Sequence record: PZ386955.1
From: a phage
Direction: 5' to 3' (one strand)
Length of the DNA: 64,000 nucleotides
Below are positions 28,179 to 58,950 of the stretch, in pieces (position 1 is the first letter of the stretch; each line of letters begins with the position of its first letter). Made by a program: the position numbers and the translations under genes. The notes below the pieces were generated by a model, which ran no database searches, was not told the origin of the DNA, and saw only the letters and a list, made by a program, of their open reading frames with translations.

Positions 28179-29339
28179 TTAGTAAGAACGACCACCAAAC
28201 ACATACTCTGTGTAGTTTTTACGTTCTTTGTTTTTAATAACAACTTCAATGTTGTTGCCTTTATCATCGGTGAACACAAAGTGATAACCGTCACCACCCA
28301 TTGTACGGATGTGTTTTTCATCATACGTCAGCAAGATACGGTCTACACCCCAGTAGTAGTCACCTTCTTCATCTTTATCTTCTACGGTAACGACTCCTTC
28401 CATTTCAGGAAGATGCTCTTCTCCTAGCTTATGGTCTACAGCTACAACATAACGATTACCGCTAAACAAACCCTGTGCTGTCATACCGTCAATATCGGTA
28501 TCTGCCGAAACATCTCCTGTACGGTCTACACCGTTGACTTTCAGAAGTTTAACTTCTTTTGCAGCATAGCGGTGTTCAGTAATACTGATACCCATTAATG
28601 CAAGTGCATCAGAGAATTTGTCATTAGGGTAACGGTTAAGTTCTTCTACTAAGGACTGAACAATATCAAAGTTCAAATCCACGGAAAGATTATAAAGCGT
28701 TTCAAAATCTGGTAAAAAGGCTTTGTTCTCCAGATTTTTAGCCAGATAGTCATCCATAGTAGCTTTAGGTAGTTTCTTATAGCTAAAGCTGTAGAAAATA
28801 CGGCTAGGACGATTACGCAAAAATTCTGATACATAACCATCATTTTTAGTCAATACAAACAGCTTGTCATAGCCACCAACACCATCCAGCAGGGTAAGCA
28901 AACCATCCTGTGCATCTTTTTCAGCATACAGTTTATCAAATTCATCGATCATAATCATCACAGGTTGTGTGATTTTAGACATAAAATTGATAAAGCCTTC
29001 ACCATTAAAAGCACTACCGATAGAAATAGTAGGAATACCCATTTCACGAAGAGCAGAAGACAGCATTTTAGCTTGCAAAGTTTTACCGCTACCCTTCGTA
29101 CCCTCAAGGAGAACACCTGTGTTTTTACCTTTGCGGCTAAGGAACGTCTTGATAATACGTTCTGATTTATCATCAGTATCACCGTATGTTACTGAAGGGA
29201 CTTCCATATCGTTTTTAGGATACAGGAAGAACTCACCACTTTGAGTAACACCTACACCAAAAGTTCCTGCTGGAATTTCTTCGATATCTGTACCAGACTT
29301 CTGACGCAGGAAGATTTGATTGCCGAATACTGTAAACAT
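28179..29339 (-). CDS. AAA+ ATPase, paralogue A
   Basis: Walker A GTKGSGKT, Walker B IMIDEFDK, LLTLLDG; N-terminal 250 aa paralogous to 43581-45191. Confidence 0.6.
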   Translation of the reverse strand: MFTVFGNQIFLRQKSGTDIEEIPAGTFGVGVTQSGEFFLYPKNDMEVPSVTYGDTDDKSERIIKTFLSRKGKNTGVLLEGTKGSGKTLQAKMLSSALREMGIPTISIGSAFNGEGFINFMSKITQPVMIMIDEFDKLYAEKDAQDGLLTLLDGVGGYDKLFVLTKNDGYVSEFLRNRPSRIFYSFSYKKLPKATMDDYLAKNLENKAFLPDFETLYNLSVDLNFDIVQSLVEELNRYPNDKFSDALALMGISITEHRYAAKEVKLLKVNGVDRTGDVSADTDIDGMTAQGLFSGNRYVVAVDHKLGEEHLPEMEGVVTVEDKDEEGDYYWGVDRILLTYDEKHIRTMGGDGYHFVFTDDKGNNIEVVIKNKERKNYTEYVFGGRSY

Positions 29340-43580: not shown

Positions 43581-45191
43581 ATGAAATACACGATTTATGG
43601 TGATATTGTAAGTGTAAATAAAGATATGGGCGTGGAATCTAACTATCTTCCACCTGGATTCTATACTGTTAGTCGTGATCCCCTTGGCAATTATTTTTTA
43701 AGCCGTGGTAATCTAACAGGTGTACCGGATGTTCTGTATGGTGAAACAGAAAAACGAGCAAATCACGTTATCCGTACATTCCATCGCCGGAGTGCACAAG
43801 GTAAAAATACAGGCTTGCTTCTGACAGGAACTAAGGGTAGTGGTAAAACTATGTTAGCCAAACTCATTAGTCGTGATCTTGTAGAAGAAGGTATTCCAAC
43901 TATTATGGTTACTCAAGCCTACAGTGATGCTAATTTCATTGAACTTATTAGCAAGATCACCGACAAAGCAGTGATTATTTTTGACGAGTTTGATAAAGTA
44001 TATGAGAAGAAACAAGATCAAGAAGCACTTCTCACTTTGTTAGATGGTACTGGCAGTGGTAATAAACTGTTTATTCTAACTAAAAACAGTGGCTTTATCT
44101 CTGAATTCTTTCTAAATCGTCCTAGTCGTGTGTTTTATAATTTTAATTATGATAAAATCTCACTAGAAACTATGATTGACTATTTAGATAAAAACCTGGA
44201 TAACAAAGCACACTTTGATAATTTCCAAAGACTTTGGGATGTAAGTTTAGAGTTGTCCTTTGATGTGATCCAAGGTATAGTAGAAGAACTTAATTTCTAC
44301 CCTGATTTATCCTTTAAAGAATGCATCTCTATGATGGGCGTTTCTTTGGGTGGTGGTAATAAATGGGATACTACAAGTATTAACAATTTTAAACGTGGTA
44401 GCGGTTGTCCACAATGTAAGAGGGAGAGACAAACAATGTCCGACGATCAACATATTGCAGATTTCTTTTCTACAGGGGAATTTAAGGAAGGCACTATCTT
44501 CACCAATACAGGGAAACGTAACAAGCGTGATGCAGTATGGATGGTTGAGTGTCCTGTTTGCTCCCATGATGAATATGTTCAAGCAGGTGTTTGTGATGGT
44601 AAATTTTACTCTGCAGGACATAACCTTAAACAAGGGTATATTCCGTGTCGTTGTGGGAACTATCAGTATACAGAAGACCAGATCACCTATAGGGTAAAAA
44701 AGGAAGTAGAAGGGAAAGGGTATGTCTGGGTAGATTGGATTACCAAACCCTCTTCTATAGGTAAGTTTAAATATCTTTGTCTTGTGCATGGTGAGCAGAT
44801 AGGGAGTGCTCGTAATTTATTAAGCCTCGGTCAAGGTTGTCCACAGTGTGCTGGTCATAATCAACAGCAATTATATATTAATATTGTTAAAGATAATGAT
44901 ATTATAGTTGCTCTTAAGTTTGGTATATCTAAAGATAGCGATAGACGATTAAACGGTCAAAATAGCCGTAATCTGTTTTTTATGGAGCGTATTTGTTTAT
45001 ATGATTTTAGCACAGTGAAACAATGTAGGGCTGCTGAAAGAGCTATAAAGAAAAAATTAAAAACTGGTATTTTAACGGCAAGAGAGTTGAAAGATGGTTA
45101 TACAGAAACAGTAAGTGTTTCTGATTTGGAAAATCTTCAAAAAATTATTACACAATATGGTGGCAAATTAGTATACAGTAAGGAGATGTAA
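43581..45191 (+). CDS. AAA+ ATPase fused to zinc-ribbon repeats and a C-terminal GIY-YIG/T5orf172-like domain, paralogue B
   Basis: Walker A GTKGSGKT, Walker B IIFDEFDK, LLTLLDG; then GCPQC, CPVCSHDE, CRCG, GCPQCAGH; C-terminus IVALKFGISKDSDRRL. Confidence 0.6.
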   Translation: MKYTIYGDIVSVNKDMGVESNYLPPGFYTVSRDPLGNYFLSRGNLTGVPDVLYGETEKRANHVIRTFHRRSAQGKNTGLLLTGTKGSGKTMLAKLISRDLVEEGIPTIMVTQAYSDANFIELISKITDKAVIIFDEFDKVYEKKQDQEALLTLLDGTGSGNKLFILTKNSGFISEFFLNRPSRVFYNFNYDKISLETMIDYLDKNLDNKAHFDNFQRLWDVSLELSFDVIQGIVEELNFYPDLSFKECISMMGVSLGGGNKWDTTSINNFKRGSGCPQCKRERQTMSDDQHIADFFSTGEFKEGTIFTNTGKRNKRDAVWMVECPVCSHDEYVQAGVCDGKFYSAGHNLKQGYIPCRCGNYQYTEDQITYRVKKEVEGKGYVWVDWITKPSSIGKFKYLCLVHGEQIGSARNLLSLGQGCPQCAGHNQQQLYINIVKDNDIIVALKFGISKDSDRRLNGQNSRNLFFMERICLYDFSTVKQCRAAERAIKKKLKTGILTARELKDGYTETVSVSDLENLQKIITQYGGKLVYSKEM

Positions 45192-45743
45192 ATGCGGATT
45201 ACTGATAAGTATGTGTTCTTCTTCTCGGCAAAAGATGAATTTAGCAACTGGTATCTATCATCTTTTATTGAACCTTTAGCTCCCAAGTATAATAATTCTA
45301 TTACAAGTTCTGTTGAATTTACTTGTGTGGAACAATATATGATGTGGAGAAAAGCATGTTTGTTTTATGATTACAACATTGCATCTTCTATTTTAACCGG
45401 AGATCTAAGATATACAGGAGAAAAAGAACAGGCATATTATAAGCGACTAGGCAGATTAGTTAAAGATTATGATGAAGATACCTGGGCTTCTTTACGGGAG
45501 AAGATTGTCAAGCGTGGTTTGTATCTTAAATACACACAAAATGAAGATCTCAAAAATAAACTTATAGCTTACGCAGATAAGGAGTTTGTAGAGGCAAGTC
45601 CTTATGATTCTATTTATGGTATCAAAATGGGGATGTGGGATCGGGACGTGGAAAATAAGGATTGTTGGAAAGGACAAAATCTTTTAGGAAAATGGCATAC
45701 AGACCTTGCTGTTTATCTAAAATCACAATCTGATATTTCCTGA
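45192..45743 (+). CDS. NADAR-family protein (YbiA-like ADP-ribose N-glycosidase fold)
   Basis: Blocks FFFSAKDEFSNW, FTCVEQYMMWRKACLFYD, EASPYDSIYGIKMG match E. coli YbiA/NADAR blocks; start overlaps stop of upstream ATPase gene. Confidence 0.8.
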   Translation: MRITDKYVFFFSAKDEFSNWYLSSFIEPLAPKYNNSITSSVEFTCVEQYMMWRKACLFYDYNIASSILTGDLRYTGEKEQAYYKRLGRLVKDYDEDTWASLREKIVKRGLYLKYTQNEDLKNKLIAYADKEFVEASPYDSIYGIKMGMWDRDVENKDCWKGQNLLGKWHTDLAVYLKSQSDIS

Positions 45744-45960
45744 TATTTTGAAAATTTTTACTTTTATAAAAAGGGGTGTGGGTTTCATGTACGGAAATCC
45801 ACCCTCTGAATAATATATCCAGAGTAAATATTATTCTGTACTCTGTTAATAAAGTATTTAATTTGTTTGTTGGACTATGGTATCTGATCTTTAAAAGGCA
45901 TACTATCTCTTAACTACTATTTATAACAGAACAGTAAAATCATTTTTATAAAAAGGACAA

Positions 45961-46160
45961 AATTATTTAAAGTTTTTACAGATTTTTGGATACAAATTTT
46001 GAAAATGAAAAGTTCAAGTTTGGTCAAAATTATTTAAAGTTTTTGTACGTATTTCTATCCAGATTTTGAAAATGAAAACTTCAATTTTTTAAAAATTCCC
46101 CAGTTTATTTAAAGTTTTTTTGCCTTTTTCCGTAGAAAAATCAAAAATGAAAAGTTCAAT
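45961..46160. repeat. three tandem ~65-75-bp direct repeats
   Basis: Each unit has ATTATTTAAAGTTTTT then TTTGAAAATGAAAAGTTCAA (internal TTGAA/TTCAA inverted repeat). Confidence 0.7.
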
Positions 46161-46183
46161 TTCGTGTTTTTATAGGTGTGTGT

Positions 46184-46198
46184 ATGATAATCATTCTC
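46184..46198. promoter_or_regulatory. Fur-box-like palindrome within palindromic cluster
   Basis: ATGATAATCATTCTC vs Fur consensus ATGATAATCATTATC; followed by TCATTCTCAGTAAGAGAATGA and GAGAATTTTTCTC palindromes to 46250. Confidence 0.4.
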
Positions 46199-46477
46199 AG
46201 TAAGAGAATGAGAATCGTTAGCAAATGAGAATTTTTCTCATTTAGAGAATAACGCGCAGGGGTGGTGTTTGTCTCGCGCTCCCGTGTCCCCTCGCCATAC
46301 AATAAGAATAGCATAACCAACAACAAAAGCAAGCGATTATTTCTATCTTTACATTTCTTTACAAATTTATTTTAGACGAGCTACCGGCGATCAACCTTCC
46401 AACCAGTAGTGCCCTGGTATGTTAGCCCCGCCTTTACGCCGTGGGGGTGGCGCTTCCTCTTCTGTATGTAAAACAGT

Positions 46478-46500
46478 ATAAGCCCGATCCCTGGGCTTGT
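46478..46500 (-). terminator. possible rho-independent terminator
   Basis: Hairpin AAGCCCAGGGATCGGGCTT downstream of minus-strand ORF. Confidence 0.4.
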
Positions 46501-46505
46501 CAAGA

Positions 46506-46772
46506 TTATTTTTTGTTTTCTTGCCAGGATAGGACACCTAACCAAAAATACATGTCGCCCCGCGCCCCTGGCGGGATCTTGCTTTCCCCGCCGCCACTGC
46601 AAGCCCATAGATAACCATTTGCGAACGTATCAAAATGATCTATCTCTTCCACCTTATGATCGCCCAGGTTGAGAACGGTTTCAACCTTTAAGCCCGTTGC
46701 GCTTGCTACCTGGTGCACCGTGCCGCCTTGCCAGCCCAATGAGTGCATAAGGTGTAAAGTAGTATTTGTCAT
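46506..46772 (-). CDS. hypothetical protein encoded in GC-rich island
   Basis: 88-aa ORF with AAGGG SD, own promoter and terminator; GC-rich codon usage. Confidence 0.4.
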   Translation of the reverse strand: MTNTTLHLMHSLGWQGGTVHQVASATGLKVETVLNLGDHKVEEIDHFDTFANGYLWACSGGGESKIPPGARGDMYFWLGVLSWQENKK

Positions 46773-46819
46773 GGTATCGCCCTTTCTTTGATGTGCGCCC
46801 TGGTTGGCGCGGTAGAAAG

Positions 46820-46848
46820 ATAATAGCCCTTTCCTTTATAGATAGCAA
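46820..46848 (-). promoter_or_regulatory. sigma70-type promoter (leftward)
   Basis: TTGCTA-N17-TATTAT on minus strand. Confidence 0.5.
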
Positions 46849-46883
46849 GCAAAAAAGAAATGAAAAAAGATTAAAAAAGGGGG

Positions 46884-46912
46884 TTGACGTTCCTCACCTG
46901 GTAGCGTATTAT
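46884..46912 (+). promoter_or_regulatory. sigma70-type promoter (rightward), divergent from previous
   Basis: TTGACG-N17-TATTAT; leader contains start-stop minicistron AAGGAGGGCGCA-ATG-TAG. Confidence 0.55.
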
Positions 46913-47039
46913 TCATCTTGTCGAGGGGGGCGAGGCACAACGACAATAAACAAAAGGAGGGCGCAATGTAGGACGGGCAAAGGTGAGGATCTCCATAATC
47001 CACCGTCACAATAACATTACTTATAAAAGGTTGATAACG

Positions 47040-47135
47040 ATGATCAAGAAAGAAAACAGCTTGACGGTTGGAACGATTAACGCTATCATTCTAGCCGTTC
47101 CATTTTGGATTGTAGTAGCGGTTATTATCTTTTAA
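47040..47135 (+). CDS. 31-aa hydrophobic peptide (type I toxin-like / small membrane protein)
   Basis: MIKKENSLTVGTINAIILAVPFWIVVAVIIF; SD AAAAGG; downstream of long leader. Confidence 0.3.
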   Translation: MIKKENSLTVGTINAIILAVPFWIVVAVIIF

Positions 47136-47143
47136 AAATATTC

Positions 47144-47201
47144 TTGACAACGTTTTTTAATCTGATAAGATGTATCACATAGGGCGGCAATAGTGCCGCT
47201 C
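47144..47201 (+). promoter_or_regulatory. early promoter + GC hairpin cassette
   Basis: TTGACA-N16-TAAGAT then GGGCGGCAATAGTGCCGC hairpin, ~25 nt before ATG. Confidence 0.6.
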
Positions 47202-47223
47202 ATAACAGAAGAGAGAAATAATC

Positions 47224-47496
47224 ATGGCATCATATAGCGCATCAATGATCGTAGCTGGCATCACTGGTAAACCTATGCGCGGTGGCGGATCTTTCGCTAA
47301 TATTAATATTGATGGGCGTTTATCCCTGGACGCAGCGATCACCGTGGCACGGGAAACATTTAAAAAAGAATGTAATTTCAATAAACAAGATTATCTCGGC
47401 TTCGTTATTGAAAAAACCGCGCGCTTTGTTGATTATAAAAGCCCGAAAATGGTTGATACTACACTAAAAGCGCAAGATGTAGCATTTTTGCTTTAA
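47224..47496 (+). CDS. hypothetical early protein
   Basis: AGAGAGAAA SD; follows cassette. Confidence 0.5.
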   Translation: MASYSASMIVAGITGKPMRGGGSFANINIDGRLSLDAAITVARETFKKECNFNKQDYLGFVIEKTARFVDYKSPKMVDTTLKAQDVAFLL

Positions 47497-47499
47497 GGC

Positions 47500-47559
47500 T
47501 TGACACTGAAAAATAATTTGGTAATATCTACTACATAGGGCGGGAAATGGTTTCCCGCC
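47500..47559 (+). promoter_or_regulatory. early promoter + GC hairpin cassette
   Basis: TTGACA-N16-TAATAT; hairpin GGGCGGGAAATGGTTTCCCGCC. Confidence 0.65.
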
Positions 47560-47581
47560 AAATCAAAGAAAGGGTAACACA

Positions 47582-47944
47582 ATGAGCAAGCAAATCAATA
47601 CTATCATGTTAAACCTGGTATCTTTCCGCGATGACGTGAAAAATCTTTCGCGTGATGCAGTAGATGCACGGATCGAAAGCTATCGCTCACAGATCGCAAC
47701 ATTACCGCTAAAACGTGATCAACATGCCGCTAATATGATGCTTAATGCTATGCTTAAAAAGATGATTCAATGTGATCTTACCCTGGCTTATGAATATGCT
47801 GGCGATCTCTTTGTAACATACAATAAGCCCGTTCCAGGTATGAGCACAACCAAAGAATTGCATGCCTTAAATCTGCGACAAGATGCATGGGATAATATGC
47901 GCCGCGTTATGGTATGGGTAGAAAGCGGCAAAATTTACGCATAA
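47582..47944 (+). CDS. hypothetical early protein
   Basis: AAAGAAAGGG SD; follows cassette. Confidence 0.5.
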   Translation: MSKQINTIMLNLVSFRDDVKNLSRDAVDARIESYRSQIATLPLKRDQHAANMMLNAMLKKMIQCDLTLAYEYAGDLFVTYNKPVPGMSTTKELHALNLRQDAWDNMRRVMVWVESGKIYA

Positions 47945-47948
47945 AGGC

Positions 47949-48004
47949 TTTACATTACACGAAAACCTGATAAGCTATCTTAAAGCGGGAATAGTTCCCG
48001 CTTT
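47949..48004 (+). promoter_or_regulatory. early promoter + GC hairpin cassette
   Basis: TTTACA-N16-TAAGCT; hairpin AAAGCGGGAATAGTTCCCGCTTT. Confidence 0.55.
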
Positions 48005-57232: not shown

Positions 57233-57440
57233 ACCTCAATAAAGATGATAGCTTTTACCTATCAAAAACGTTCACCGAAAAAAGTGAATAGATCGCGGTA
57301 TCGAGCTAATCAAGGAGCAGATGAACAACCATACCATGAAGATCATAAGGCGCTTACAACGCGTTTTAGACCGCTTGTTTTTAATTTCTCCATGTAACTA
57401 TCTGGCAAAAACAGCCTTTTTCTTGTCTTTCCTCTTAAAT

Positions 57441-57456
57441 AATAATCATTCTCATT
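57441..57456. promoter_or_regulatory. Fur-box-like half-palindrome
   Basis: AATAATCATTCTCATT. Confidence 0.35.
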
Positions 57457-57492
57457 TGTAGCTGATTATTTATGCAATAAACTGAATAATGC

Positions 57493-57510
57493 AATAATGA
57501 TAATCATTCT
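57493..57510. promoter_or_regulatory. Fur-box-like palindrome
   Basis: AATAATGATAATCATTCT (16/19 to GATAATGATAATCATTATC). Confidence 0.45.
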
Positions 57511-58362
57511 TAACTTAAGACCATCTAACCTATAAAATAATAAGCTATCTAACTAAATTAAAGCTAATTATCTCACCTTTATTTATAACTTACTGTTACT
57601 ATCTCATTGATAACCTTATATTAAACAACAATAACTAATATAAATCATTACCAAGCTAAAGATAAGCTATCTAACCTTTAAAACTATAACTATAATCTAT
57701 CGAATTGTTGCACAAAGTAACTATTAAATTGTTAGTAACATTACTAAATAATTAATATCCTATCTATTTATGATCTAATCTTTACCTTCCTATCTATTAC
57801 CTAAATAATCATTTCATACAATAACTATAACAAGAAATATAATTCGCAAGCGTATCATTAGCAGCCTATGCCGGACACATAGGCGGCTAATAATAACGCA
57901 ACTACACACCCCACATAATAACCATCACCGATAGTTATTATTTGTGCTTATGTAGCTTGCAACAATTGCAAGCGCAACAATATACATGGTATATTGTATC
58001 CCTTACATTGTTGCGGTGCGTTATTATTAGCTAATGTTTAGAACATTGGCTATAATATAAGCTATCCAATAATAATAAGCTATACAATAATAAACATAGT
58101 GAATAATGACCCCCGATGATCATAATGCGCCACCTTCCAGGGGGCGCTATGTGAACACAAAGAAACCTTTCTTGTCAAGAAAAATATTGCCACTATTGCG
58201 CAAAATTATTTATATCTGAATAGATGATTTTTCATACTATTGCCCCCAATACTATCCCTATTTGTTGCCCTAACTATTGTCATTTGTTGAGCCTACTTTC
58301 TTAAAAGCGCAATAAATCAGAATTATCTTGATTTTTAGGGCGTTTTATAGTATAGAAAATAT

Positions 58363-58381
58363 GCAAATGATAATCATTATC
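58363..58381. promoter_or_regulatory. Fur-box-like palindrome
   Basis: GCAAATGATAATCATTATC: 16 contiguous identities to Fur consensus; just downstream of TTGATT...TATAGA promoter-like site. Confidence 0.5.
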
Positions 58382-58548
58382 AGCTATCTTCCACGGGTGG
58401 CACTATTTCACGCAGGATCATTTCATTTGGCAAGGTGTATATAGATGTTTAGACTTGCCAAGCCATTGATTTACTTAGAATTTATCTGTTTTGTTGTGAG
58501 TAGTACCTTTCTTGCTCAGAAAATAATCAAAAGTCTTATAAGTCATTG

Positions 58549-58579
58549 AATGATAATGCAAATGATAATTATTCTCATT
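58549..58579. promoter_or_regulatory. tandem Fur-box-like palindromes
   Basis: GAATGATAATGCAAATGATAATTATTCTCATT. Confidence 0.45.
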
Positions 58580-58950
58580 GATATTTGAGGGGGACGGTCG
58601 GCAGAAATCGGGGGGCGCTGAAAATCGCGTTAAGCACCTCTCGCAAGCGAGCAGTATTTTGCGGCAAGTTATTGATATTATTGACTTTACGCTTATGAAA
58701 AGGGGGTGTGTCGAAATAAATCGGGTATACCGGAAAAATTTTGTGGCATAGATATTTATTTGTCTATATTATGTACAAAGGGGTGTGTTAAAAATAATAG
58801 GTATATATAGAATAATTGATAGGGAATACCTATACTAATTCCTATACTAAATCCTTCATTAATGATGTTTCTATGGTGCTGTTCTTGTAATAGATGAAAA
58901 GACGCTGTATGATGTGTGGCATGAAACGTAAATTTATAAAGGAGTCTGAT

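Follow-up and report, generated by a model that had tools for sequence, protein, structure and literature searches.

The 64,000 nucleotides of phage DNA analysed here (sequence record PZ386955.1; the whole stretch is referred to below as the window) include a GC-rich island around positions 46380 to 47135 that carries two small protein genes, divergent promoters and, on the minus strand, a conserved non-coding element that we call E1 and that is the main subject of this report. The segment 46200-47250 matches Justusliebigvirus genomes (phages outra, ESCO8 and phi92-like; Stephanstirmvirinae) at 98.9% identity, and the island lies within a 1.5-kb gene-poor gap running from a NADAR-domain gene (45192..45743) to the first annotated small early gene (47224..47496). 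The window comprises three blocks, namely tail genes, a minus-strand block (DNA polymerase, primase-helicase, NrdD and helicase) and plus-strand genes from ~43 kb on, and encodes the phage's own family-A polymerase and its own primase-helicase. The two protein genes of the island are orf88, on the minus strand, and a plus-strand gene for a 31-amino-acid peptide; both have already been deposited as hypothetical proteins, and the phi92 record annotates only gp224 and gp225 at this locus. The non-coding element E1 is undescribed as far as our tools show. Feature coordinates are collected in Table 1.

The original prediction for this DNA, made from its letters without database searches, had pointed to ~650 bp visibly more GC-rich than the flanks, and windowed composition confirms this. 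Compared with a mean GC of 0.378 for the window, the maxima at all three scales lie within the island (0.555 at 46551 for 200 bp, 0.52 at 46411 for 400 bp and 0.489 at 46371, that is 46371-47020, for 650 bp; z = 4.0-4.25), and the lowest-GC 200-bp stretch of the window (45921, GC 0.20) directly adjoins the island. Codon usage deviates as well: GC content at third codon positions (GC3) reaches 0.53 in orf88, compared with 0.25-0.28 for its neighbours and for the DNA polymerase gene. We infer that two sources add up to the GC excess, the foreign composition of orf88 and the GC-rich stems found in E1 and in the 5' hairpins of transcripts in the region.

E1 is ~95-105 nt long and begins ~35 nt after the orf88 stop codon. 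A covariance model gives a single match in the window (113.5 bits), and each related locus examined has one copy, except that of Raoultella phage Ro1, which has two. When 46240-47140 was used as query in a sensitive blastn search, the most widely shared part was query 107-233, corresponding to window 46346-46472, and the phages matched at E1 have Klebsiella, Proteus, Cronobacter, Pectobacterium, Enterobacter and Raoultella as hosts. Overall, E1 is conserved at 82-97% across the Stephanstirmvirinae and Vequintavirinae, in phages of at least seven named host genera (Escherichia, Klebsiella, Salmonella, Cronobacter, Pectobacterium, Serratia and Erwinia); in distant Vequintavirinae (Mydovirus, Certrevirus and others) it is 82-85% identical and mostly unannotated. 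The same sensitive search with the DNA polymerase gene returned zero Vequintavirinae, and Phapecoctavirus only at ~75%. In conservation, E1 far surpasses the DNA polymerase gene of this phage.

The limits of this conservation coincide with a promoter. P2, an E1 promoter that is absent from the original prediction and stronger than the two promoters named there, is the best promoter match in the region; its -35 and -10 hexamers are retained in all genera compared, with a spacing of 17-18 bp where counted by eye, while the spacer sequence diverges. In an 11-genus alignment, columns of the E1 core are 0.86-0.97 identical vs 0.4-0.55 in the spacers of P2 and of a downstream promoter-like site, P3, and conservation climbs a few bases past the P2 -10 and drops again in the P3 spacer. 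Hexamers kept, a spacer rewritten and a core at this level of identity indicate selection on transcribed E1, unlike what recent transfer would leave, and the sequence comparison argues for selection rather than recent transfer as the source of E1 conservation. Spread of a neutral or selfish segment by recent horizontal transfer, with no function behind the conservation, would be in keeping with the mosaic distribution of the module between genera, with an orf88 allele in phage ESCO13 whose synonymous divergence (dS) is 0.07 and with the homing endonuclease cassette found within E1 in Ro1. It is nevertheless highly improbable in our view, since the flanks (promoter spacers, hairpin loops and the slot upstream of E1 that holds orf88 or a DUF7170 gene) are saturated while the core is 86-97% identical, and since three diverged structural types of E1 (A, B and C) have the same architecture.

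Pattern scans for E1 covered IMG/VR, metagenomes and GTDB genomes, a credible copy being one that shared the flanking promoter and TGTAAAGA motifs. They yielded 35 unique type A variants, all in rV5-like phage genomes or fragments with that shared flanking promoter and those motifs. Matches in metagenome-assembled genomes (MAGs) and short freshwater contigs were set aside as chance matches in coding DNA, except a phage-like MAG-filed fragment (L052), and a looser pattern and a type B/C pattern gave mostly chance matches, with only L172, L199, L202, L209, L214 and L235 real. E1 is retained where the upstream gene belongs to another family or is missing. A coding role was rejected: 1-nt indels occur, loop lengths are not divisible by three, and a start codon is lacking. 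Rfam searches at E <= 1 over 45500-48000 and E <= 10 over 46150-46520 gave nothing credible for E1, for a second element (E2) described below or for the leader of the peptide gene, the best scores being L2-Alphaproteobacteria with 17.2 bits (gathering threshold 37.8) at 47172-47218 and ohsC with 16.3 bits (gathering threshold 50), and a scan with ARAGORN found no tRNA or tmRNA. No description was found in literature searched for E1 sequence strings and for small RNA (sRNA) or origin work on these phages. The pseudo-ToxI of phiTE, a type III antitoxin mimic, occupies a different locus, the phiTE orthologue of E1 lying at ~39.7 kb. Three motif-based candidates within E1, a clustered regularly interspaced short palindromic repeats (CRISPR) I-E repeat mimic, a boxA/nut-like site and an anti-Shine-Dalgarno decoy GGAAGGUGGAUC, were dropped on inspection of the aligned sequences by eye, the motifs being unshared by types B and C or variable between phages.

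RNAalifold predicts three helices in E1, giving it from 5' to 3' a hairpin (CGCC/GGCG), an A-rich linker, a long-range helix (GGCGG/UCGCC) round an enclosed variable hairpin, and an invariant AUCGCCGG tail. The enclosed hairpin appears well supported by the variation among E1 sequences. One of its pairs is split almost evenly between A-U (13 sequences) and G-C (14), its apical loop ranges from 4 to ~10 nt among variants, and types B and C, though they differ in sequence, retain a hairpin in this position. Compensatory changes include U-A to G-C in type C, A-U to U-A in L175 and G.U/A-U wobble changes in type B, and a C-G to U.G change is also seen among these divergent alleles. The 5' strand of the long-range helix reads GGCGG, GGUGAU or YUGGC according to type, each still pairable with the invariant AUCGCCGG, and the wobble pairs of E1 fit the minus-sense strand only. 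Type B occurs as a native single copy in Klebsiella phage P8734 (L177) and as the second copy in Ro1, and type C in an Erwinia phage and five IMG/VR contigs.

Two further observations concern individual E1 copies. In Ro1 (L009 746-1600) an HNH endonuclease gene is inserted within E1, after ...GGATCGCTGGTA, and is followed by a new TTGACA promoter and the divergent type B copy, which suggests that a homing endonuclease targets the conserved E1 in this phage. Homopolymer G runs vary among near-identical phages, from G3 to G7 in the loop of the E1 hairpin (46419-46425) and from G5 to G7 in the leader of the peptide gene (46925-46930); either these tracts are prone to slippage, or the deposited genomes contain errors of sequencing or assembly.

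Past E1 in the minus sense, the order of features is kept across the genera compared: two TGTAAAGA motifs, P3, a stem with the loop GACAAACACC (E2), a cluster of Fur-box-like sites and three AT-rich repeats. The TGTAAAGA motifs are conserved in most genera and may be UP-element-like or a protein site; the second of them, like the sequences of the AT-rich repeats, varies between genera. The position and spacing of P3 are conserved in alignments, and relatives have stronger versions, for example TTGCAA-17-TATATT. The stems of E2 differ between genera around the conserved loop, and its folding is not significant (z = -0.69). The Fur-box-like cluster holds its position across genera, with a perfect box at the orthologous place in phage 4MG (L008:1425-1439); its best site in the window, 46185-46199, has one mismatch to the 7-1-7 consensus TGATAATnATTATCA. 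With up to three mismatches allowed, the window has 27 such sites vs 10.05 +/- 3.45 expected, a count reached in 0 of 100 shuffles, and by this measure the candidate Fur boxes match the consensus more often than chance would allow. Others lie at 57440-57512 and 58362-58577, including a perfect site at 58368-58382, and 58362-58380 fits the classical Fur consensus at 17 of 19 positions by eye. The AT-rich repeats share TTTGAAAATGAAAAGTTCAA, lie downstream (minus sense) of the leftward promoters and look like iterons, and GAAA(A/T)TGAAA motifs are found at the orthologous place in phiTE, even though the phiTE genome has ~50% GC. A second AT-rich non-coding region, of ~1.5 kb (57400-58890), has no open reading frame (ORF) of 60 or more amino acids, contains the window's GC minimum at the 400-bp scale (0.225 at 57441) and holds Fur boxes together with recurring motifs that resemble TAAGCTATCTAAC; it may have an origin-like or regulatory role of its own.

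This setting bears on whether E1 works as RNA or as DNA. As DNA it would be part of an origin (initiator or primosome loading, or a single-strand initiation signal) or a protein-binding site, with the promoter needed solely for opening or activating the region. Such a role would suit the ~50 near-invariant columns, predicted loops and linkers included, that base pairing leaves unexplained, as well as the lack of a thermodynamic folding signal, and it agrees with the position of E1 next to iteron-like AT-rich repeats and palindromic operators, with the homing endonuclease that targets E1 in Ro1, and with the rV5 genome paper, in which a 'non-coding' box is shown and the origin could not be placed (PMC3606486). 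However, the hairpin between the conserved halves varies by up to ~10 nt and its stem co-varies, as suits a folded single strand better than a duplex, the G.U pairs work in the minus sense only, and a promoter is kept exactly upstream of E1 in every genus. We regard action as a DNA site as rather unlikely.

In the mechanism that we propose, host sigma-70 RNA polymerase would transcribe the locus leftward and rightward from back-to-back promoters. E1 RNA would be made both from P2 and by read-through from orf88, and would fold into the 5' hairpin and the long-range helix around the variable hairpin. The leftward non-coding transcript would go on to cross the P3-like site, a hairpin, the Fur-box-like operators and the three AT-rich ~70-bp repeats, and E1 would act in cis on this leftward transcription, either by way of read-through or antitermination or by priming a replication origin with RNA or activating it. 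No terminator-like site was found downstream of E1 on the minus strand in our scan, and alignments show no more than a short U run before TGTAAAGA; because no intrinsic terminator follows, there is probably a leftward, non-coding RNA for which E1 forms the 5' leader. Action in cis on read-through/antitermination or on origin priming/activation is the most likely role, given the start of E1 at a promoter, the absence of an ORF or terminator after it, its constant linkage to the operators and AT-rich repeats, and the family-A polymerase and primase-helicase of the phage.

Action in trans would make of E1 an early small RNA or protein decoy whose target is a host factor found throughout the Enterobacterales (RNA polymerase, ribosome, CsrA or an RNase). 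Its own strong promoter, its possible origin as a product of the orf88 3' untranslated region (UTR), its purine-rich GGA motifs and Shine-Dalgarno (SD)-like GGAAGGUGGAUC, and its invariance across phages of many host genera, as for a conserved host partner, all speak for this. Yet neither a Rho-independent terminator nor a U tail follows E1, unlike in Hfq-type sRNAs, the SD-like GGAAGGUGGAUC is missing in type B variants, and E1 invariably occurs linked with P3, E2, the operator boxes and the AT-rich module, pointing to a role in cis. A trans-acting E1 seems improbable to us, and one of the Hfq type is less likely than a cis-acting leader.

Several results weigh against a cis-acting RNA and, more broadly, against a control function for the locus. 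Only 2 of the 16 pairs in the E1 model show double changes, model helix P1 never varies and model helix P2 varies on one side only, and E1 folding energies are no better than those of shuffled sequences (z -0.1 to +1.4). Most of the conservation of E1 is at the level of sequence, and may reflect a role as DNA. P3 is weak in the window (8/12), no transcript data for these phages were found in the literature searched, and the origin, antitermination and priming ideas are conjectures from the layout of the locus. Fold and profile searches gave no significant structural analogue or profile match for the orf88 protein, a helix-turn-helix assignment of it was not supported by any significant profile or fold match, and translation of the 31-amino-acid peptide is putative, suggested by its conservation. 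With these points taken into account, E1 is most likely a phage-encoded non-coding or leader RNA. We put forward only tentatively, as a possibility with less than even chances, that it is the founding member of an undescribed phage RNA family, a leader or small RNA ~100 nt long, made by host RNA polymerase at the start of infection and working through a host machine conserved in the Enterobacterales.

The island as a whole we consider, with fair though not high confidence, to be the left boundary of the Justusliebigvirus early-gene region, made up of several units, E1 included, and read in both directions by host sigma-70 polymerase; the locus is accordingly read as the early control hub of the phage. 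Both promoters named in the original prediction are present, P1 for orf88 and the rightward TTGACG promoter. The P1 region is 88% identical in Phapecoctavirus, and the rightward promoter is common to that genus as far as its -10. It stands at the head of ~19 strong plus-strand TTGACA promoters over 47-56 kb, each followed by one small ORF, which form an array of early-gene cassettes. The orf88 mRNA has the same promoter-then-GC-hairpin layout as the early promoters at 47144 and 47500. A GC-rich stem-loop was observed within ~10 nt after each of the early promoters that were inspected closely (47144, 47500 and ESCO13 cassettes), with the consensus CA(C/T)ATAGGGCGG-loop-CCGCC, so placed as a 5' hairpin on each such transcript (47144-47220, 47500-47560); P1, P2 and P3 share the plan of a promoter followed by a stem-loop, with other stems.

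Table 1. Positions of features in and around the GC-rich island, in window coordinates
Feature	Position	Strand	Basis or remark
Three direct repeats of ~70-79 bp, GC ~0.2, iteron-like	45942..46162	.	Repeat search, family D1, 71-73% identity to reference copy
Fur-box-like palindrome cluster TGATAATCATTCTCA, TGAGAATCGTTAGCA, TGAGAATTTTTCTCA	46185..46240	.	Pattern TGATAATNATTATCA; 1, 3 and 3 mismatches
E2, GC-rich stem-loop with conserved loop GACAAACACC, directly after P3	46250..46300	-	Alignments
P3, promoter-like TTGCTT-16-TATTCT	46305..46332	-	8/12, by eye; below scan threshold in window
Pair of TGTAAAGA motifs in direct orientation, spaced by one helical turn, immediately upstream of P3 -35	46346..46363	-	Sequence
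E1, conserved non-coding element, core ~46375-46468	46365..46471	-	Covariance model and alignments
P2, E1 promoter TTGACA-17-TATACT	46503..46475	-	11/12, best promoter match in region
Hairpin AAGCCCAGGGAUCGGGCUU in P2 spacer, terminator-like for orf88, U tract weak and displaced	46498..46480	-	
orf88, 88 amino acids, phi92 gp224 family, phrog_19316	46506..46772	-	ORF scan, homology
orf88 SD, GAAAGGG	46780-46786	-	Read from sequence
orf88 mRNA 5'-UTR hairpin GCGCC-N6-GGCGC	46795..46810	-	Read from sequence
P1, orf88 promoter TTGCTA-17-TATTAT	46848..46820	-	Promoter scan, 9/12
Rightward promoter TTGACG-17-TATTAT	46884..46912	+	10/12; first of early cassette promoter array
Leader, 123 nt, only in Justusliebigvirus-type records	46914..47036	+	Comparison with Phapecoctavirus
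Start-stop AAGGAGG-N5-ATG-TAG	46954..46971	+	SD 46954-46960, ATG-TAG 46966-46971
31-amino-acid peptide MIKKENSLTVGTINAIILAVPFWIVVAVIIF of the ESCO13 gp162 family; N-terminus polar, a single hydrophobic helix at the C-terminus	47040..47135	+	
Next early cassette promoter TTGACA-16-TAAGAT with TG, then hairpin GGGCGGCAATAGTGCCGC	47144..47171	+	Promoter scan and sequence

The minus-strand 88-codon ORF of the original prediction was recovered as orf88. A large protein search returned 21 homologues with identity down to ~41%, and orthologues taken from related loci are 32-39% identical; syntenic orthologues, whose 3' ends lie ~60 nt before E1, occur in Phapecoctavirus, W70, Serratia phage Kashira, phiTE, L049 and metagenomic relatives. 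The motifs LGWQGGTVHQVA..TGL.V..L.L and FWLGV show no or almost no variation, and the ratio of non-synonymous to synonymous divergence (dN/dS) is 0.04-0.31. Judging from these comparisons, orf88 is a genuine gene that purifying selection maintains at this locus in several genera. Its product is predicted to be small and all-helical (AlphaFold2 mean predicted local distance difference test score 93.4), and neither it nor the 31-amino-acid peptide has a Pfam or NCBIfam match. A terminator of its own, also proposed for orf88, is present in part: there is a hairpin at the expected place, its U tract is weak, and relatives have a different hairpin at that position. In other relatives the orf88 slot holds a DUF7170 protein (Mydovirus and some Seunavirus) or another ORF, of 69 amino acids (SalP219), or is empty (PBES02). 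The allele in the Phapecoctavirus ESCO13 encodes a 100% identical protein with a dS of 0.07 despite DNA polymerase genes of only ~75% DNA identity between Justusliebigvirus and Phapecoctavirus, and it is therefore likely, on allele comparison, that the orf88 module has been exchanged between related phages; the alleles are mosaic, that of nepoznato being 72% identical.

An origin of the island outside phages finds less in its favour. The original prediction held it to be a horizontally acquired moron and proposed a search of host genomes; neither orf88 nor the island has a match in 5,426 complete E. coli genomes. Homologues of orf88 with a long contig or a name are nearly all on rV5-like phage-sized contigs or in phage records, one cluster bearing the name of an NCBI E. 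coli assembly, on a 146-kb contig. The moron idea stands for orf88 insofar as this gene has foreign GC3, a variable slot and its own promoter and hairpin; it fails as to a host origin, and the most GC-rich non-coding part of the island is its most conserved ancestral piece and was not acquired.

On the plus strand, the 31-amino-acid hydrophobic peptide gene likewise proved real. Its product, with a hydrophobic C-terminus of 19 residues (mean Kyte-Doolittle hydropathy 2.77), is found in 109 phage records at a coverage of at least 80% (tblastn). The frame is open in 10 of 10 distinct variants (31-35 codons), all keeping an N-terminal MI(K/N)K(E/G)NSLTVGTINAI and a hydrophobic tail, and among them synonymous changes per site greatly exceed non-synonymous ones (Sd/S much greater than Nd/N). 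This pattern indicates that the gene is genuine and under purifying selection in many phi92-like and phAPEC8-like phages, and the peptide is best described as a putative small early membrane protein, the first of the ~19 promoter-plus-small-ORF early cassettes. Homology to Phapecoctavirus ends at 46913 and restarts at 47037 (two loci compared), the leader in Justusliebigvirus directly joining the rightward promoter to the peptide ATG. In Phapecoctavirus the shared promoter is followed by a standard 5' hairpin and a 65-amino-acid gene, and ~1.6 kb separate the divergent promoters from the downstream peptide gene (ESCO13 gp162), which has a promoter, hairpin and SD of its own in front of it. In phi92 the peptide ORF has 34 codons' worth of product (34 amino acids) and is unannotated in its record. 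An additional 93-amino-acid gene, gp225, stands between the phi92 peptide gene and the next promoter (L001 3455-3736) and is not in the window.

The remaining part of the original prediction was that the peptide, a structured leader and an ATG-TAG minicistron behind AAGGAGG resemble a type I toxin locus or a small membrane-protein regulator. The start-stop is there, and it is not conserved: TAG follows the ATG in 4 of 6 distinct leaders and CAG or CAA in the other 2, phi92 reading ATG CAG GAC GGG CAA AGG TGA and L017 ATG CAA ... TGA, each a 6-codon mini-ORF, with the SD degraded in L017. The start-stop state is under no visible selection. The leader folds worse than shuffled sequence, with a minimum free energy of -16.2 vs -21.4 +/- 3.1 kcal/mol (z = +1.66). 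An antisense promoter-like site at the 3' end of the peptide gene (47136..47109, 9/12) lies in AT-rich codons and is lost, by eye, in the divergent phi92-type allele, and promoter matches at 9/12 occur near chance frequency (12 found vs 7.7 expected in a first scan, 37 vs 26 in a second).

Taken at its widest, the earlier view makes the whole island an acquired moron whose plus-strand part is a type I toxin-like or membrane-regulator locus with a structured leader and a start-stop minicistron. That orf88 departs from the norm in GC and GC3 and brings its own promoter and hairpin, that a ~30-amino-acid peptide with one hydrophobic helix follows a 120-nt leader, and that a 9/12 site lies antisense to the peptide 3' end would agree with it. 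We hold it to be very unlikely, in view of the negative E. coli genome search, the poor folding of the leader, the 6-codon ORFs that replace the start-stop, the loss of an antisense site that is itself near chance, and the lack of an Rfam antitoxin RNA, the sole match being to ohsC (E = 6.9) elsewhere; moreover, the leader is missing in Phapecoctavirus, where the peptide is an ordinary early cassette with a short standard leader and its own promoter. The evidence now available speaks against a toxin-like peptide, and the start-stop, toxin-like peptide and moron are ordinary features of a phage early region.

Some observations concern the genes to the left of the gap. A 536-amino-acid protein (43581-45191) joins an AAA ATPase (phrog_2376) to a C-terminal half with CapR homology that resembles T5orf172-type endonucleases; phi92 has two separate annotated genes (gp221 and gp222) in its place, and a paralogous ATPase without the C-terminal extension is encoded at 28179..29339.

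The rV5-, phi92- and PVP-SE1-like myophages are widely isolated and are used in therapy and biocontrol. In them, E1 is a single-copy, promoter-driven non-coding element that has outlasted every alignable gene between two subfamilies, and it offers a marker sequence for the whole phage group. Its place beside iteron-like repeats and near-consensus Fur boxes provides a testable handle on early regulation and the origin. An E1 RNA family, if it exists, would explain why E1 is near letter-perfect in more than 200 phage genomes of two subfamilies despite polymerase genes that have diverged beyond DNA alignment; polymerase read-through into an origin, or an origin primer or activator, would be examples of its function.

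Comparison with known systems places the parts of the locus as follows. Like morons of the lambda/HK97 type, orf88 is a single gene flanked by a sigma-70 promoter of its own and a downstream hairpin, shows atypical GC and GC3, and occupies a slot that is filled by different genes or none in relatives; it differs in lacking a host origin, in being under apparent purifying selection at the same locus across several genera, and in lying in the early control region of a virulent phage rather than in a prophage late operon. With type I toxin-antitoxin loci (hok/sok, tisB/istR, shoB/ohsC, ibs/sib and zor/orz) the plus-strand unit shares a ~30-amino-acid hydrophobic peptide and a long 5' leader, but it has no conserved antisense or divergent sRNA and no Rfam antitoxin match, the leader is unstructured and lineage-specific, and in the sister genus the peptide belongs to a standard early cassette. 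Minimal ATG-stop ORFs are known from ribosome profiling of E. coli, and the start-stop here resembles them in its strong SD, 5-nt spacer and ATG followed by TAG, although close relatives have CAG or CAA for the stop and the SD is degraded in one. Among 3'-UTR-derived sRNAs with an internal promoter, of the MicL/DapZ type, E1 finds a parallel in its location ~35 nt past the orf88 stop and in the overlap of P2 with the orf88 terminator hairpin, but it has no U-tailed terminator and is kept when the upstream gene differs or is missing. Leader RNAs and origins that modify or use a polymerase include the put RNA of HK022, ColE1 RNA II, the R-loops at T4 oriF and oriG, and the T7 primary origin, a promoter plus an AT-rich region. 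As a functional analogy, with no claim of membership, E1 may be likened to these: it begins a few nucleotides after a strong promoter, has two predicted stem-loop domains, and is followed by AT-rich repeats with neither an ORF nor a terminator after it, in a phage that encodes a family-A polymerase and a primase-helicase.

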